Virus record (IMG/VR): IMGVR_UViG_2681813318_000003 | Strand: one strand, 5' to 3' | Source of the DNA: a virus | Lineage: Duplodnaviria > Heunggongvirae > Uroviricota > Caudoviricetes | DNA length: 64,000 bases | Shown: piece after piece, positions 7,510 through 64,000 of the stretch | Numbering within the stretch: the first letter of the stretch is position 1 | Layout: the number at the start of each line of letters is the position of its first letter | Translations under genes and position numbers: made by a program | Notes under the pieces: generated by a model | Database searches by the model: none | Told to the model about the DNA's origin: nothing | The model's input: only the letters and a program-made list of their open reading frames with translations

Positions 7510-8319
7510 TCATCCAATAGTGTACTCCGCTACAAACTTCTTAACGATCGGTGATTCTTCGTTCAATGTTAGATTTCCACCGTCTCTAACGGCAATTCCT
7601 GTCGCTGGAAATACAGCCATCATTTGCCCAGCCTGAGTTGACGCAGTGTTAAGCGGATACGGTTTTTCTGGATTGCTCATTAAAGCAATCTTAATACTAT
7701 TACTTGTAGCCTTCTTTTCTGTGAGAAGGTGTCTCATGGAAATTACCGTGTAAACACTAATATCTGGACCTCCGCTAAACCAATTAAGAAGGTTTAATAT
7801 CTTATCCTTTGCTTTGACAGGCGCGTTTTCGTAAGTGTCTAAGAAAATATCTTTTTCTAAGCCTGCTTTATTGAAAAACAAATCATCTTTATCACTTAAA
7901 GTAAAACGAGGACCTCTTGCAGTACGAGCTTTTTTATTTGTATTGCTATCATTTGACTGTTGAACTTTTAATTCATCATTAACCTCAACACACTCTTCAA
8001 CCTCAATAAACCCCAATTGTTCTGGCTCGTTTTCGGCAGATTCAACACTTTCAGCCTTAATTACGTTTATAGGCTCATGAGCTAACTCCAACTCATTTAA
8101 AGCGGAGCTGAAATCACCTGCTTTTTCTTCATTGAACAGTTCTTCGGCAACATCATCAGAACTCATGGCTACGCCAGCATCGAGGCCGAGAAGCAGATCG
8201 TCAATATCATCAGTATTTTCAACCTGTGCAGCTTTTTTTACTGGTTCATCAAGTGATTGCAACATGGCTGTCAGCTCATCCAGATCATCATTTGTCATTA
8301 CATTTTCAACCGAACTCAT
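7510..8319 (-). CDS. hypothetical protein with strongly acidic N-terminal region
   Basis: 269 aa; first ~110 aa are dominated by Asp/Glu; AGGAG upstream of the start. Confidence 0.55.
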   Translation of the reverse strand: MSSVENVMTNDDLDELTAMLQSLDEPVKKAAQVENTDDIDDLLLGLDAGVAMSSDDVAEELFNEEKAGDFSSALNELELAHEPINVIKAESVESAENEPEQLGFIEVEECVEVNDELKVQQSNDSNTNKKARTARGPRFTLSDKDDLFFNKAGLEKDIFLDTYENAPVKAKDKILNLLNWFSGGPDISVYTVISMRHLLTEKKATSNSIKIALMSNPEKPYPLNTASTQAGQMMAVFPATGIAVRDGGNLTLNEESPIVKKFVAEYTIG

Positions 8320-8479
8320 GTAAGTCTCCTTCTGTTTAGTTGCATTTGCGTTTCGATGGCTACATTTTGACTAAACCTATCAGGCGGAAAAGTATTAAAT
8401 ACAGGCAGGAAATGATTGAAAGGCGACTGTTCTTTAAAAGAAAGCCTGCTTCAAACTCTCTTTAAAGCAGGCTTTTGTT

Positions 8480-9037
8480 TTACACAATTTCAGAGGGTAA
8501 TTTAAAAAATCCGTATTTATTACGTGCCTTAAAGAAGCATTGCATCATTAAGTTTGTGTCATATAAGGCACTATGTGCTTTGGCATGATCGTATATAAAG
8601 CCAAGAGAGAAGGCCAATTCTTCAAGGCGAGGACGTTTACCGTCTTCTGTGGCCCACAATCCCGATAACATAGTATCTATAACAGGAACTTCTGGCAGTC
8701 TTACTCCATACCCTGAAAACTCGTGTCGAATAAATGGTATATCAAACGCTTCGCCGTTATGAGCAATCCACGCACTACATGCCCCCATATAAGCGCCAAT
8801 TTCGCTGGCATGATTTGACAACAAAGGTTCAGCTGCGAGCTGTTCTAATGAAATGCCATGAACGGCTTGAGCTTTCGGATCTATGTTTCTGCGAGGGTTA
8901 AAACGCATCTCCAGACTATCAATATGTCTCTGTGTCTCCAGTTCATAGCGGGTAATTGCGATTTCAATAATTTTATGACCAGCAAGGAAATCCAGTCCCG
9001 TAGACTCGATATCGATGCCTGCAACAATCGTTGTCAT
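8480..9037 (-). CDS. DnaQ-like 3'-5' exonuclease (DEDDh family)
   Basis: Motifs DIESTGL, HNGEAFDIPF and HSALYD. Confidence 0.8.
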   Translation of the reverse strand: MTTIVAGIDIESTGLDFLAGHKIIEIAITRYELETQRHIDSLEMRFNPRRNIDPKAQAVHGISLEQLAAEPLLSNHASEIGAYMGACSAWIAHNGEAFDIPFIRHEFSGYGVRLPEVPVIDTMLSGLWATEDGKRPRLEELAFSLGFIYDHAKAHSALYDTNLMMQCFFKARNKYGFFKLPSEIV

Positions 9038-9046
9038 CAGAACTCC

Positions 9047-9466
9047 TTACAACTTCTTAGCGCCCTTAAGTAGGGCGCTACGTACAAATTGAGCCGCTTT
9101 TTTCAAAGTTTCTTCACTGGTTTCACAGACAATCGGATCTTTCCACTTACCTGACGCAGTGTTGAGAATATTGATTTGGTTGCTATCCAGACAAATAGAG
9201 ATATAAAGCACCGTGCCACCAGCCAGCATCAAATGCATAGGAAACAGAGGCTTTTTACTGTCTTCACTGAACTGAGACATGGCGATGTTAATGGCTTCAC
9301 CTACTTGTGCGCCAACAAGCCCCTGCGCAGTTTCGAATATGGCACGAATAGCCAGACGAGCCTCTCGATCGCTCATAAGCGACCGGGAATGTTCGTCCGC
9401 TACACGAATCAAAGCCTCTGTTGTTTTCCGATCCAGTTCATCTTCAAGCAACATTTCACTAAACAT
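9047..9466 (-). CDS. hypothetical protein
   Basis: 139-aa ORF in operon context. Confidence 0.5.
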   Translation of the reverse strand: MFSEMLLEDELDRKTTEALIRVADEHSRSLMSDREARLAIRAIFETAQGLVGAQVGEAINIAMSQFSEDSKKPLFPMHLMLAGGTVLYISICLDSNQINILNTASGKWKDPIVCETSEETLKKAAQFVRSALLKGAKKL

Positions 9467-58595: not shown

Positions 58596-59315
58596 TTAGA
58601 CCATCCCTTTCTGGTGTTTTCTTACCTGCGACCAGGCAATGAATCCTGCCACAACAATAGTGGCAATACCGAAGATGATGCGTACTGTATCCCCGCTAGA
58701 GATATGACCTTGTGCTTTATCCATAGCAGCGGAAACCTGTGGCATAACATCGGCCAGCTGTGCCAGACCAATACCTGCTGTAACAGTTGCGCCTGCGGTT
58801 TCTTTAGTTACAGGAACAGCCTTCACGGTTTTCACCGGCTTAACGACGCCAGCTCGACGCAGACCTTCCTCAATAACTTCTGCCGCATACCAGGTGTTCA
58901 GCGTTTTTAGCGGACCTCGCCCATTCTCATGGCGAATGATTGCCTCAACCAAAGGTCGAAGGATGTCGTAATCATGCAGATCGATGATCATGTCTGCGGT
59001 TACACCAACGGCTTTAGACACCTCATTAATGTAGGCGTCAGTGTTGTTTTCATTCGGCGGTGCCCAACGTTCAATAACTTCACGAATGGTATCGATACTT
59101 GAGCCGTCTTTTGCGCGACGTTTGTCGTGGTAGGTAATTAGAGTCACCGCCAGCGCACGAATCCCCCAAACAGGGTCTTTAAACGTGCAAAAGCGCGGTT
59201 CGTCTGGATTCGCAACCAGACCTTGCCACGGTGATCCTTTATCAAGATTACCGGGGTTATTATTACGAATGCCTCTCGGAGTCTTCATCCTTGATCTCCT
59301 GTTATTGCAGTCCAT
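58596..59315 (-). CDS. hypothetical lysis-associated protein (candidate cell-wall hydrolase with C-terminal TM anchor)
   Basis: 239 aa; N-terminal soluble domain (GIRNNNPGNL...), Lys/Val/Thr linker and C-terminal TM; sits between a holin-like and spanin-like genes. Confidence 0.3.
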   Translation of the reverse strand: MDCNNRRSRMKTPRGIRNNNPGNLDKGSPWQGLVANPDEPRFCTFKDPVWGIRALAVTLITYHDKRRAKDGSSIDTIREVIERWAPPNENNTDAYINEVSKAVGVTADMIIDLHDYDILRPLVEAIIRHENGRGPLKTLNTWYAAEVIEEGLRRAGVVKPVKTVKAVPVTKETAGATVTAGIGLAQLADVMPQVSAAMDKAQGHISSGDTVRIIFGIATIVVAGFIAWSQVRKHQKGMV

Positions 59316-59637
59316 TTTTTACGCCATACGCGGCTAACCCCAAAAGCAGTGCAGTAATAATGAACGACGTTATTTTAGAAACAATGCCGCCAAAGAACCC
59401 ACTGGAGATGGAATCTAACCGGTTAAGGAGTTTGTCCAGATTGGAGTGTTGAATACTATGTTGCGCCGGGGTCATATCACCAAAGTAGGTTTTCAGCTGA
59501 TCATTGACCTCCTGGCCAATTTCTTCACGTAGCTCTTTGCCTAATTTGCCAACAACCTCCCGAGCAACGATCGCGGCAATACGCTCAACTTGCTCTGTTG
59601 TAACGCCCGCCATCTCGTTCGACATATTTTCCTCCAT
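59302..59637 (-). CDS. small membrane protein (holin-like candidate)
   Basis: 111 aa with a C-terminal TM (ITSFIITALLLGLAAYGV). Confidence 0.35.
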   Translation of the reverse strand: MEENMSNEMAGVTTEQVERIAAIVAREVVGKLGKELREEIGQEVNDQLKTYFGDMTPAQHSIQHSNLDKLLNRLDSISSGFFGGIVSKITSFIITALLLGLAAYGVKNGLQ

Positions 59638-59706: not shown

Positions 59707-59937
59707 TCATTCAGCATTGCAACGGACTGATGAGAAAGCACCTACTCCAACCCATCGCCAGTTATAGATGCTACCCGCTTTGTATAAGGTATAGTCGTTC
59801 ACTTTTTTAACAGCATATATGGGTATGACTGTCTCCTGTCCACCAATGCTAGCCTCACCATAACATATAGGTGTCGGCAATTTCTGGCAGCCAGTAAGAG
59901 AGAGAACAACAGCTATTGTTAGAAATAATCTTTTCAT
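59707..59937 (-). CDS. small lipoprotein
   Basis: Lipobox LSLTGC; 76-aa precursor; directly downstream of the tail-fibre genes. Confidence 0.6.
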   Translation of the reverse strand: MKRLFLTIAVVLSLTGCQKLPTPICYGEASIGGQETVIPIYAVKKVNDYTLYKAGSIYNWRWVGVGAFSSVRCNAE

Positions 59938-59947
59938 CGTTTACTCA

Positions 59948-60556
59948 TCAGTTATACAGATTTCTATTTATTACCGGTACTCTGCCATTTACACTAAAAC
60001 TATGGCCGCCATTAAGTTGGTTTACGAATATAGAGCTAACAGTATTTCCATATGCCGCATATCCATAAACCATTGTCATGGCCCCGCCCGGTACTGGAAC
60101 CGCGAACACATTTGCATATGTTGGGATTATCGCTGGCGGGTAATCAAAAACATGCCCTCCAGAACTGTTCCACTCCGTATTATTAAGAAAGGTAAATGAA
60201 AGTGGGATATTTGCCGTATTATAGATTTCCTCCCCTTGTGCATTGAAAAAACTCATGCCCCAAGTTTCTTTTTTGGCTATACCTTTCGAAAATACGTATA
60301 TCGTGGCACTAGAGTCGCTACCCTGACCTCCGAAACTGTAAATCACCTGGTTGTTACGCACTATTCTGTTGGCTATTAATGAAACAGCTTTCGAATAGGC
60401 AACAAAAATCATCGGTGAACGATCTGGAGATATTTGGGTGTTAAACTCTGTCCCGCCAGACAAAGAAACAACCTGCTTTCTCTGAAAAACGATAGGAGAC
60501 AAAGAAGGAGACATCCAGACCTTCCCGTCAGATCGATATATCTTGCTTCCGTACAT
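59948..60556 (-). CDS. hypothetical protein (tail-fibre-associated)
   Basis: 202-aa ORF, Gly/Ser/Asn-rich. Confidence 0.5.
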   Translation of the reverse strand: MYGSKIYRSDGKVWMSPSLSPIVFQRKQVVSLSGGTEFNTQISPDRSPMIFVAYSKAVSLIANRIVRNNQVIYSFGGQGSDSSATIYVFSKGIAKKETWGMSFFNAQGEEIYNTANIPLSFTFLNNTEWNSSGGHVFDYPPAIIPTYANVFAVPVPGGAMTMVYGYAAYGNTVSSIFVNQLNGGHSFSVNGRVPVINRNLYN

Positions 60557-60810
60557 TATTTTTGAAAAACCAATATGTTTAAATTGCCACTAGCTCCAGA
60601 CCATGAAATGGTATTTCCAGAAACCGTAAGACTTGTGTATTTCCCATTGGTTACGTCCATTATGTAATAGTCGATTCCCAATCCCGCCTCAACCTCATAT
60701 GTTCTACTTCCAGAACCAGAGGGAGTAAAATAATCGAGGTAATAAACAGGGGCCAACGCATCGACCATCTCCTGTCTTGATGGCGACCATACCTGTGCAC
60801 CATAGCTCAT
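60556..60810 (-). CDS. hypothetical protein (tail-fibre-associated)
   Basis: 84-aa ORF translationally coupled to the next gene. Confidence 0.45.
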   Translation of the reverse strand: MSYGAQVWSPSRQEMVDALAPVYYLDYFTPSGSGSRTYEVEAGLGIDYYIMDVTNGKYTSLTVSGNTISWSGASGNLNILVFQK

Positions 60811-60870
60811 AAATATATCCTTATACTTTTAAGCAGGGGCTGGTTTAGTTCCAGCCCCGATTGAAGTTGT

Positions 60871-63800
60871 TTATTCTTTAGGTGAATTTAACTTCGTTTC
60901 AAGCTCCTCAACCCTTTTGGTCAATTGCTGAATATGATGAATGAGTGGTACAACCAAACGCTCATACATCACCCCTTCAGCGACCATACCATTTGAGGAA
61001 ATATCTTCTGGAGAATCATTATTTGTTGGTTCACGCCAATGGACATATTGCGGGGCAATCTCACCTACCTCTTCAGCAATAAGGCCGTAATACCCCCAAT
61101 CCTTTCGGTCACCTCGACAAATTGAACGATACCAAACAGGTCTTAATGACAAAAGTTCATCAGCATATCGATCTTGTAATGTTTCAATATCCTTTTTATA
61201 GCGCCTTGAAGATGTTGAACGCCAAACTGTATTGATACCTGGGTTTGGATCAATGTACATATTGGCACCGCTAGTAGTTGTGCCAATATCCCATATAGCA
61301 AACCCTCCACTACCGCCTGATTTGACAACCAGTGTTTCAGCAATAATATCCAGGTTGCCACTATAGCCTGTCAGTGATGATCTGCTTGCATAGGAACTTA
61401 GAAGGTTTGTTACCTCTGTTTTCGTGTAAGCATTAAGGTTAGCCGCAGTCAAAGTAATATCGGCAGAGCCATCAAACGCCACACCAGCAATTTTCCTTGC
61501 TGTCTGCAATTTTGTGGCTGTTGCGGCATTACCAGTAGTATTCTGATTACCGGTTGTATTCACACCAGGGATTGAATCCTTAGCAGTATATACCTGCGCC
61601 CACGCTGACCATGCCGCATCTGTGGTATCTCTTCGTGAGCGAATGAAAACTGGCGCATGTGCACCGCTCGTACCACTCCAGCCAATAAGCAACTCGCCCT
61701 CACCAGCAGCACTCGCACCTTTCATGTGCAATACGTTGCCATACGTGGTCGGATAGCTATTGTTGTACGCCTCGTACATTTGAATGCCAGCAGTGCCTTG
61801 AGTAGAGCCGCTTAATGCCGTAACTCGGCCACGAGATACCAGTGTATTAATGTTGATATCGCCTGAGCCATCAAACTTAACACCATTGATGTTTCTCGCT
61901 GTTTGCAACTTCGTAGCTGTTGAAGCATTACCGTTCAAACTACCATTTACGCCACCAGTCACATTTAGTCCATTACCAATTGATACCGCACCGCTGGTAT
62001 TATTAATTGTAATAGGTCGCAAACCGTTCCATGAACCTAATGTGTCTCCTGATGCTGTTAGCATGAAATATGTGTTCGATCCATCATTACGGATAAAGAA
62101 CCCAAAGCTACCGTAAGCAATGCGGAAACCATTTGCATATTTTGAAATGATCTCACCAGAAGACGTTAATCCGCCAGTTAACGCTCCTCCAGATAGTGGT
62201 AAAGCTCCGACATCAGCCGCAGTAGGCTTGTTTTTAGTGTTATACGCTCTGCGCCATCCTGGTGAATAGCTCGTCCCGTTAAATACATAGATAAACTCCG
62301 CATTAGTGAGAGCACCAGAGACACTCGTCGTTGTGGCCGTTGTTATACGGATCGTATAATTGTTTGAGCTACTACCGTTATTAAATACCTCTATAACAGC
62401 TCCTGCTAATGGAATAACGCCACAACCAGTTTCACTATTTGGTATGGTTGCACTATTGGCATAGGCCCACGCACATCGAGCAATCCATGACTTTGTGTTA
62501 AATGCTCCATTATTTTGCAATAACGTCACTAACTGTGCTGTTGTTATTGCTCCGCCATTACTTCCTGTAGTTAACCAACCAGTAGGAGATGCCGGGCAAC
62601 CTATATTTGCTGGCGACAAGGAAATATTTGCCGAGCCGTCAAACGACACCCCATTGATAGTACGCGCAGTCTGCAACTTCGTAGCAGTAGCCGCGTTGCC
62701 CGTTGTATTCTGATTACCAGTCGTATTAACACCTGGCAAATTAATATTCGCAGTACCATCAAAGCTCACGCCGCCGATAGTTCTTGCCGTCTGAAGTTTT
62801 GTAGCAGTTGCAGCATTACCAGTGGTGTTCTGATTACCCGTAGTATTTACACCTGGAAGGTTGATATTTGCAGAACCGTCGAAACCAACTCCACCGATAG
62901 ATCTTGCCGTCTGCAATTTCGTTGCTGTACTTGCATTACCATTTAATGTTCCGGTGATCCCACCAGTAACAGACAACGGACCTGAAACTGTTCCTCCGGT
63001 TGTTGGCAGTGCTCCAATATCTAACGGCGTCGGTTTCTGATGTGTGCTATACATCGTATAAACAACACCATCGGTAACGCTGGAAGGCTTACTAGCTGAA
63101 TATGTTGGCGATGTATAAATAGAAACTGTCGCATTTGCAGTACAATCCCAATGGATATTTACACGAGTCGCATAATTGCCAATCTCAACGTAAATATCAT
63201 ATGTATCGCCGGATGTGTTGATCCAGGCGAAATTCGTTAATCCGACAGCTGTACGCTTCCACAAAGCACCTGTAATCCCTTTGGGGTTTCCATTGCCTGC
63301 TCGTAGAACCAGTTCTGAAATGCCTGCCTGATGTGGGGAGCCGACGTTGTAACCAGCGCCACCAATCAATGCGATGTAAACGATGGAACTCGCTTGTGGC
63401 ATTGTAACAGTAGCCAGTTTGAACCACCCGGCCCCGCCAGAGAAAGACATCGTTATTGAATTTAAAGTACCAATATCTTTCGGCGTTAATGTGATATCCG
63501 CAGTCAGTGCTTTCCCGTTAATTTTTCGGTTAGATGGCACCCTGCTGTTCGCATTGTCATTGACTACTTTAACTGCTTTTGGCGTTGCGGCCAGCGATTC
63601 ACTGGTGCTGTCGACAGCACTGCTAAGTTTCACAACACCTTTAGTTGTAAGGCTTGCGTCTTCCATCGCAACTGCACCGGCAATCTCTTCAGCACGATCA
63701 GCAGCAGCTTCCGCACGGGTCGCAGCGGATTCAGCAGCAGTTTTGCTCTGAGATGCTGCCGTCGCACTGCCTGCCGCCTCTGTTGCTTTCGTGGATGCCG

Positions 63801-64000
63801 TCGTGGCGCTGCCCTTCGCTGCTGACGCCTGTCTGGTCGCCTCATCTTTTGAAGCAGACGCAGATGATGCCGATGACGCTGCCGAACTGGCGGATGATGC
63901 GGCTGCCGTTTTTGAGGATTCTGCACGGGTTTCCGACGCTTTCGCGTTCGTTTCGGATGTCTTCGCTGCGGAAGCAGACCTCGCTGCTGCGCTGGCCTGT
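60871..64000 (-). CDS. tail fibre protein with C-terminal intramolecular chaperone (peptidase S74-like) domain; partial, N-terminus beyond window end
   Basis: Frame stays open upstream of the track ATG at 63666 through an Ala/Ser-rich region to position 64000; internal ~40-aa repeats (GNAATATKLQTAR...FDGSANI); C-terminal ...SSRRYKKDIETL... chaperone-like domain. Confidence 0.8.
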   Translation of the reverse strand, partial: QASAAARSASAAKTSETNAKASETRAESSKTAAASSASSAASSASSASASKDEATRQASAAKGSATTASTKATEAAGSATAASQSKTAAESAATRAEAAADRAEEIAGAVAMEDASLTTKGVVKLSSAVDSTSESLAATPKAVKVVNDNANSRVPSNRKINGKALTADITLTPKDIGTLNSITMSFSGGAGWFKLATVTMPQASSIVYIALIGGAGYNVGSPHQAGISELVLRAGNGNPKGITGALWKRTAVGLTNFAWINTSGDTYDIYVEIGNYATRVNIHWDCTANATVSIYTSPTYSASKPSSVTDGVVYTMYSTHQKPTPLDIGALPTTGGTVSGPLSVTGGITGTLNGNASTATKLQTARSIGGVGFDGSANINLPGVNTTGNQNTTGNAATATKLQTARTIGGVSFDGTANINLPGVNTTGNQNTTGNAATATKLQTARTINGVSFDGSANISLSPANIGCPASPTGWLTTGSNGGAITTAQLVTLLQNNGAFNTKSWIARCAWAYANSATIPNSETGCGVIPLAGAVIEVFNNGSSSNNYTIRITTATTTSVSGALTNAEFIYVFNGTSYSPGWRRAYNTKNKPTAADVGALPLSGGALTGGLTSSGEIISKYANGFRIAYGSFGFFIRNDGSNTYFMLTASGDTLGSWNGLRPITINNTSGAVSIGNGLNVTGGVNGSLNGNASTATKLQTARNINGVKFDGSGDININTLVSRGRVTALSGSTQGTAGIQMYEAYNNSYPTTYGNVLHMKGASAAGEGELLIGWSGTSGAHAPVFIRSRRDTTDAAWSAWAQVYTAKDSIPGVNTTGNQNTTGNAATATKLQTARKIAGVAFDGSADITLTAANLNAYTKTEVTNLLSSYASRSSLTGYSGNLDIIAETLVVKSGGSGGFAIWDIGTTTSGANMYIDPNPGINTVWRSTSSRRYKKDIETLQDRYADELLSLRPVWYRSICRGDRKDWGYYGLIAEEVGEIAPQYVHWREPTNNDSPEDISSNGMVAEGVMYERLVVPLIHHIQQLTKRVEELETKLNSPKE

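Follow-up and report, generated by a model that had tools for sequence, protein, structure and literature searches.

What does a long minus-strand open reading frame (ORF) encode when it runs off the edge of the sequence that carries it, and does its product still work? The question is raised by a 64,000-nucleotide (nt) stretch of DNA from a virus of the Caudoviricetes (IMG/VR record IMGVR_UViG_2681813318_000003; the whole stretch is hereafter called the window), at whose end a sequence-only reading had recognized a tail fibre gene with tandem repeats, a self-cleaving C-terminal chaperone and an Ala-rich N-terminal region. In our analysis, the product of this gene is highly likely to be a side (lateral) tail fibre belonging to an SSU5-like siphovirus, kept by E. 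coli as a plasmid of ~100–115 kb, with the architecture and the mechanism described below.

The ORF ends with a TAA stop (60873–60871), and its first listed ATG lies at 63666, from which 931 amino acids (aa) are encoded. Upstream of this ATG, the frame contains no stop in the given sequence from 63667 to 63999, and its Ala/Ser-rich translation reads QASAAARSASAAKTSETNAKASE, as the sequence-only reading had described; altogether, 1042 fibre codons lie within the window. Residue numbers in this text refer to this part of the ORF, and adding 343 gives the full-length numbering. The earlier placement of the gene start outside the window also proved right: ~343 codons must lie beyond the edge because close relatives encode a protein of 1385 aa that is 98–100% identical, begins with MWYREGTITF and starts 343 codons (~1029 nt) further upstream. 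Full-length homologues of 1385 aa were found in pS2-S1K81-2 and p503025_100, and the family phrog_3299 is matched end to end, with window aa 1–1042 aligned to positions 344–1385 of 1385 (2315 bits). The protein homologue search yielded only matches of at most 331 aa, the full-length relatives not being among them. A shorter start, giving an 811-aa fragment, is annotated in p503025_100; we regard it as the annotator's choice, the frame being open across all 343 upstream codons of this plasmid. The assignment as a tail fibre is upheld by the phrog_3299 match and those to many other PHROGs labelled 'tail fiber', by the annotations of RefSeq and of the phage-plasmid Cyrano, and by matches in the PDB to Mu S and T4 gp34.

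The genomic setting agrees with this assignment. The region matches E. coli plasmids of ~100–115 kb in the complete-genome set as well as Cyrano (pLF82), and both the Salmonella phage SSU5 and ~110-kb E. coli plasmids share its gene order (J-like tail tip protein, fibre, two small ORFs, cor, holin, endolysin, Rz). Both marks of the lateral fibre of SSU5-like phage-plasmids, an end-to-end phrog_3299 match and the conserved locus, are thus present. Relatives occur on several hundred plasmids, mostly of E. coli. Of 5426 complete E. coli genomes, 48 contain the segment encoding the fibre tip and the chaperone (at least 80% of 582 nt, at 95% nucleotide identity or more), in every case on a plasmid of this kind and in none on a chromosome. 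Cyrano, a close relative, forms siphovirus particles with a 259-nm tail (PMC9928086), and antibiotic-resistance genes are reported from the phage-plasmid class in general (PMC9600943).

It could be supposed that the gene is a relic of a domesticated or defective element and no longer yields a functional fibre. Four plasmids are 100% identical to the window over 60500–64000, and in each of them IS2 lies inside the fibre gene at a site equivalent to window 62259–62263 (in NZ_CP025894.1, IS2 occupies 7765–9095); the same four, which are the plasmids most similar to the window, also have a truncated J-like gene with IS100 next to it. IS66 or ISEc9 insertions occur in the same region of other relatives, and the start of the gene lies beyond the window. 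At least four of the 48 occurrences mentioned above are IS2-disrupted plasmids, and some of these phage-plasmids have probably lost the ability to form infectious particles. The four IS2-bearing plasmids came from human stool, with India recorded for p503025_100, the single record examined. We nevertheless consider a decaying gene unlikely: the window copy carries no IS2, its 1042 codons are free of stops and its catalytic Ser and Lys are intact; the repeat peptides are conserved at saturated synonymous sites, implying long-term purifying selection; the tip and chaperone segment persists at 95% identity or more in 48 genomes; the 343 upstream codons are open even in the IS2-bearing p503025_100; and Cyrano makes particles.

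The evidence for a self-processing fibre is concentrated in the last 113 aa, where the earlier suggestion of an endosialidase-type chaperone is supported by a Peptidase_S74 domain. The Pfam model PF13884 is matched with 27.8 bits against a cut-off of 22 (aa 930–986 to profile positions 1–57 of 58), and a profile built from 24 sequences matches the chaperone of a DT57C-type L-shaped fibre (8hqz_d, E = 1.3e-6). The AlphaFold2 (AF2) monomer model (predicted local distance difference test score, pLDDT, 64–92 over the domain) ends in a helix (aa 1012–1038), in keeping with the chaperone fold, which consists of a beta-strand 'ring' and a long C-terminal helix for the trimeric coiled coil; Foldseek aligned it with the MyRF ICA (7dc3, 1e-4) and then with the chaperones of GA-1 (3gud) and K1F (3gw6). 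Within the motif R-S-T-S-S-x-R-Y-K, Arg927, Ser930 (codon 61210–61212) and Lys935 (codon 61195–61197) do not vary among 24 homologues, of which the most distant has 32% identity, and the Lys follows the Ser at the same distance (+5) as in endoNF S911/K916 and MyRF S587/K592. That Ser/Lys pair proved indispensable, and the cut was located just before the Ser (PMC8326128). Because the Pfam assignment, the invariant pair, the profile match and the fold matches all agree, cleavage is predicted between Thr929 and Ser930.

Cleavage being inferred only, one may ask whether the S74-like domain is instead retained as a distal knob while a trans-acting factor folds the fibre. Candidates for such a factor would be two conserved and translationally coupled ORFs of 84 and 202 codons directly downstream, which also accompany this tip module in T1-like phages. 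If catalysis were dispensable, however, the invariance of Ser930 and Lys935 over homologues as distant as 32% identity would be unexpected. Moreover, both ORFs are unchanged in SSU5, whose fibre differs in its tip and in its S74 end and has an adhesin gene of its own, and the Cyrano fibre locus lacks them. This want of co-variation with the tip rules the two ORFs out as tip-specific chaperones, and we consider a retained knob quite improbable. Additionally, no member of the Tfa family was found downstream of the fibre in Pfam, PHROGs or NCBIfam, the ORFs there matching phrog_557, phrog_425 and then cor. No tfa-like or gp38-like gene follows the fibre, in contrast to SSU5 with its gp38-like adhesin gene SSU5_022, and this fits the self-chaperoned tip that we prefer.

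The second conspicuous element of the protein is a repeat of 40 aa, of which at least four copies had been claimed and five were found when the units were aligned. The string TATKLQTAR occurs exactly five times (aa 358, 398, 438, 694 and 827), within the core (A/S)TATKLQTAR.I.GV.FDG. Units R1 and R4 belong to one sub-type (VTGG..G.LNGNASTATKLQTAR) and R2, R3 and R5 to another (.PGVNTTGNQNTTGNAATATKLQTAR); the units share 22–37 of 40 residues in pairwise comparison, and five identical 9-mers within units of such identity are not a matter of chance. The description of the repeats as tandem applies to R1–R3, which stand head to tail (Tandem Repeats Finder: period 120 nt, 2.2 copies, 76% matches), but not to R4 and R5, which flank inserted domains; the motif gaps are 256 aa from R3 to R4 and 133 aa from R4 to R5.

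The peptides of these units are far better conserved than their DNA. R2 and R3 are identical at 37 of 40 aa but at only 85 of 120 nt, and the longest exact nucleotide run common to any two copies is 14 nt. When identical residues were compared, the number of differing codons equalled the expectation for synonymous saturation under the gene's own codon usage in all ten copy pairs (for R2/R3, 22 observed and 23.4 expected). Saturated synonymous sites together with a conserved peptide rule out a recent expansion and point to strong selection at the peptide level. The notion of a recently expanded, recombination-prone array whose copy number switches fibre length or host range is accordingly very hard to sustain: three units do stand head to tail, relatives differ in copy number and the 40-aa spacing dominates among them, but synonymous saturation extends to every copy pair, and both the number and the sequence of the copies are the same in Cyrano and pS2. 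Full nucleotide divergence would also leave no obvious substrate for homologous deletion between copies.

A phmmer search with R1–R3 against 1.84 billion representative proteins returned 6019 clusters at E ≤ 1e-3, 588 of them at E ≤ 1e-30; a single protein can contain as many as 11 matched stretches. Among the best 149 matches, the commonest motif spacing is exactly 40 aa, a spacing of 132–134 aa recurs and copy numbers in the relatives range from 2 to at least 10, counts that are to be read in view of 79 of these 149 matches falling outside the strict pattern. The repeat is therefore a very common fibre building block, without a Pfam family or a solved structure, and its units probably form stretches of narrow triple β-helix.

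Comparison with Cyrano reveals where the fibre has been exchanged. Cyrano gp21 occupies the same locus and has the same N-terminal two thirds as the window fibre; the two are ~100% identical over aa 1–700 but only 10–25% identical between a point just past the R4 core and R5; in R5 and the helix behind it they are again ~100% identical, and beyond aa ~870 the identity is lost. Cyrano thus carries another cassette between R4 and R5 and a tip without an S74 domain, and the exchanged cassettes are bounded by repeats. It is conceivable, although we hold this idea only tentatively, that the repeat serves as a standard junction whose peptide is conserved so that cassettes from different phages join in register, the copies within the gene being at synonymous saturation. 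If so, recombination would swap cassettes between genomes with no deletion between copies within a gene.

The remaining domains are described below from the tail outwards, and the coordinates of all features are collected in Table 1. The Ala/Ser-rich stretch is not the N-terminal region that it had been taken for; it constitutes the last 110 aa of a heptad shaft of ~300 aa, which in relatives is preceded by an anchor domain of ~150 aa that is not Ala-rich. Its composition is 38% Ala and 22% Ser, and in the full 302-aa region of a homologue, the Ala and Ser/Thr positions give sharp Fourier peaks at 3.5 and 7.0 residues, a periodicity that indicates a heptad coiled coil. Over 63551–64000, which covers the shaft and the adjoining Phage_fiber_2 unit, the DNA is 83–84% identical to stf of lambdoid phages. 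The Phage_fiber_2 unit aligned to residues 105–156 of Mu S, and its motif G-V-V-L ... A-A-T-P-K-A-V suggests that it corresponds to the alpha-beta fibrous repeat solved in T4 gp34 and gp12 (PMC5537660).

Table 1. Features of the fibre gene and its downstream neighbours (window coordinates; aa numbered within the window)
Feature	Coordinates	Strand	Evidence or remark
Side (lateral) tail fibre gene, C-terminal 1042 codons and stop	60871..64000	-	ORF, phrog_3299, homologues
Ala/Ser-rich heptad coiled-coil shaft, lambda Stf-like, last 110 of ~300 aa (aa 1–110)	63670..63999	-	
One Phage_fiber_2 unit, gp34/gp12-type alpha-beta fibrous repeat (predicted; aa 116–156)	63532..63654	-	Pfam PF03406, E = 6e-18
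Beta-sandwich domain (~aa 175–335), no Pfam model	62995..63477	-	AF2 and Foldseek
Tandem repeats R1, R2, R3 (aa 341–460)	62620..62979 (R1 62860..62979; R2 62740..62859; R3 62620..62739)	-	Motif, Tandem Repeats Finder, unit alignment
Globular domain homologous to Mu S' segment (aa 461–597)	62209..62619	-	PDB 8ju3 residues 186–329, E = 4e-28
Gp34_trimer domain, T4 gp34 / Mu S type (aa 598–676)	61972..62208	-	Pfam PF21446, E = 4e-30
Repeat R4 (aa 677–716)	61852..61971	-	Unit alignment
Exchangeable cassette domain (aa 717–809)	61573..61851	-	In SSU5 gp21; other domain in Cyrano
Repeat R5 (aa 810–849)	61453..61572	-	Unit alignment, Cyrano comparison
Distal tip of mature fibre (aa 850–929): short helix, then ~55 aa of beta structure ending VWRST	61213..61452	-	
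Peptidase_S74 intramolecular chaperone (aa 930–1042, 113 aa)	60874..61212	-	Pfam, profile, fold, Ser/Lys
Stem-loop 13 nt past the fibre stop	60836..60858	-	8-bp GC-rich stem, 7-nt loop, -17.3 kcal/mol, z = -4.05
84-aa ORF	60556..60810	-	phrog_557
202-aa ORF	59948..60556	-	phrog_425
cor, superinfection-exclusion gene, 76-aa lipoprotein	59707..59937	-	NCBIfam NF047972 equivalog, E = 9e-23; phrog_1119
111-aa ORF	59302..59637		phrog_5093
Putative endolysin, 239 aa	58596..59315	-	phrog_873

The beta-sandwich domain was modelled by AF2 as all-beta (model m898a12cb0d0f; predicted template modelling score, pTM, 0.71), and Foldseek matched it to the N-terminal domain of WceF (6tgf, 1e-7), to Acinetobacter tailspikes and to many models of phage fibres and exopolysaccharide (EPS) depolymerases. 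A reading of the whole protein as a depolymerase or tailspike was rejected, as no enzymatic domain was detected in it and the likeness of the beta-sandwich to such proteins is confined to their N-terminal domains, which are not catalytic. Further along the chain, the PF21446 match spans aa 564–665, the structures 5yvq, 4uxe and 5nxf align over aa 588–690, and 9x3r matches too. From R4 through the cassette and R5 to the start of the tip (aa 677–896), blastp found 49% identity to aa 638–863 of SSU5_021, and in the homologue alignment of the tip, TT..AN and RST are invariant. Pfam at E values up to 10 gave nothing for the repeat, the beta-sandwich or the R4-cassette-R5 segment (aa 677–850), and NCBIfam gave no match for the fibre.

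On the basis of this domain order, we propose the following mechanism. From the tail outwards, the anchor domain beyond the window would be followed by the coiled coil of ~300 aa, which at ~0.15 nm per residue would measure ~45 nm. The distal half would be beta-structured, with the 40-aa units alternating with the beta-sandwich, the Mu S'-like domain, the gp34-type trimerization domain and one exchangeable cassette, and the fibre would end in the tip of ~80 aa. We infer that the fibre is a trimer, in which the C-terminal 113 aa would act as an intramolecular chaperone, their terminal helices trimerizing and templating the folding of the tip; Ser930, helped by Lys935, would then cut the chain just before itself and thereby release the chaperone. 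The mature fibre would most likely make the first, reversible contact with a surface glycan, and the J-like central fibre would make the irreversible contact. The presence of cor nearby suggests that this central fibre uses FhuA as its receptor, a link between Cor and FhuA being established for Cor of phi80, N15 and T1-type phages.

Several observations weigh against this interpretation. The N-terminal 343 codons lie beyond the window, and the intactness of this copy is visible for 1042 codons only; in the four most similar plasmids, as described above, IS2 splits the fibre gene and J is truncated. With respect to the chaperone, the Foldseek matches to phage proteins are weak (3gud, E = 0.075; 3gw6, E = 0.2), only MyRF being significant, and a direct phmmer search of the last 237 aa against PDB sequences gave chance matches to SCAP and no solved chaperone. 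The model is that of a monomer and is poor over the tip (pLDDT <50). As for the repeat fold, phmmer with R1–R3 against the PDB gave a sole weak match, to the C-terminus of phage L Dec (E = 0.09), and no match to gp34; the Dec C-terminus itself is only modelled on gp34, as a narrow triple β-helix (PMC6449081).

The DNA downstream of the fibre gene contains further features. The stem-loop just past the stop has no T-run and may stabilize the transcript or cause attenuation between the fibre gene and the ORF that follows it; scans for sigma-70 promoters and terminators gave fewer sites than shuffled sequence. The 84-aa and 202-aa ORFs are coupled via a TAATG overlap and are kept as a pair in SSU5 (gp23/gp24) and in T1-like phages (tonn gp66/gp67); in a search made for the 202-aa protein, it matched Stx phages too. 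Their PHROG labels are 'outer membrane protein' and 'membrane associated protein', and neither a hydrophobic segment nor a signal peptide was found in either protein. The gene table of pS2-S1K81-2 has no entry at the position of cor, the tables of PLSDB being incomplete. The sole hydrophobic, membrane-spanning-like segment of the putative endolysin, named 'membrane protein' in RefSeq, is C-terminal (aa ~208–231), unlike that of signal-anchor-release endolysins, which is N-terminal. The 111-aa ORF preceding it is the counterpart of the 'holin' genes of Cyrano and SSU5; its PHROG has no known function, and the protein has a single C-terminal hydrophobic segment after ~80 soluble residues.

Compared with known systems, the fibre has a mosaic build: a shaft of the lambda Stf kind is combined with modules known from Mu S and T4 gp34, with a beta-sandwich and with a unit of tip and chaperone. 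Lateral fibre loci of siphoviruses are hypervariable, comprise one or several polypeptides and are thought to bind O-antigen or other surface glycans (PMC8594841). Close homologues of the window fibre have already been annotated as tail fibre proteins with an S74 domain. SSU5 gp21 lies at the same locus, has the same N-terminal two thirds and also ends in an S74 domain, but its repeat units number only two, its S74 end differs (SDRRSK), and it is followed by the separate ORF SSU5_022, annotated as a receptor-recognizing tail fibre adhesin; we presume that gp21 and gp22 of SSU5 resemble the gp37/gp38 arrangement of S16. At the end of the Cyrano fibre (aa ~1250–1341) stands another Mu S'-like domain, a diverged second version of the one at aa 461–597 of the window fibre; one domain type can therefore serve as a module inside a fibre or form its distal tip.

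The lambda Stf and other lambdoid side tail fibres share the Ala/Ser heptad shaft and the Phage_fiber_2 unit with the window fibre, but a downstream Tfa gene is missing in the window; lambda Stf depends on Tfa as a separate chaperone and is not known to end in an S74 domain, and the MWYREGT anchor of the homologues presumably also differs from the lambda Stf sequence. Mu S/S' and T4 gp34 have the Gp34_trimer and Mu S'-like domains in common with it, which in the window fibre stand mid-fibre and not at the end. Both are fibres of myoviruses, and the long fibres of Mu and T4 are folded by separate chaperones. An invertible switch of the Mu/P1 type (Gin/Cin) was considered and rejected, as none of the inverted repeats is convincing and the opposite strand offers no second version of the fibre end; between 57000 and 64000, only six short inverted pairs (16–22 nt, 73–88% complementary) were found, and an invertase gene was not searched for.

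The self-cleaving end has its own set of relatives. The chaperone of the K1F endosialidase and the ICA of MyRF share the fold and the Ser...Lys(+5) pair with the S74 domain of the window, although identity is only 12–21%, the residue after the Ser is Ser here in place of the usual Asp, and the chaperone is preceded here by a thin fibre tip rather than by an enzyme stalk. The L-shaped fibres of T5-like phages (T5 pb1; DT57C LtfA, PDB 8hqz) are likewise lateral fibres of siphoviruses that end in a Peptidase_S74 chaperone, and residues 950–1075 of 8hqz_d aligned with ours, including the GTS-x-x-YKK site and the terminal helix. Outside the chaperone, no similarity to T5-type fibres was detectable, and these have neither the Stf-like Ala/Ser shaft nor the 40-aa ATKLQTAR units nor the modules of Mu S and gp34. 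The unit of tip and chaperone recurs at 46–56% protein identity in lambdoid phages. In the T1-like phages (Drexlerviridae; tonn gp60 and the 'lateral tail fiber chaperone' of PeterMerian, 46–48% identity over the tip and chaperone), the tip protein is encoded by a stand-alone gene of ~225–231 aa with its own N-terminal coiled coil, whereas here it is fused to a fibre of 1385 aa.

Every component of the fibre thus comes from a described family, and this particular mosaic is of an expected kind; on its own, the finding matters little, being one more variant of the mosaic lateral fibres with a self-cleaving C-terminal chaperone. It does provide a residue-level domain map and a predicted cleavage site for the fibres of SSU5-like phage-plasmids, and it draws attention to a 40-aa repeat that is found in more than 6000 protein clusters without a curated family or structure and that appears to have a role at cassette boundaries. 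Furthermore, the comparison indicates that the unit of tip and chaperone is mobile among phage-plasmids, lambdoid phages and T1-like phages, in some of them as the end of a fibre and in others as a gene of its own.

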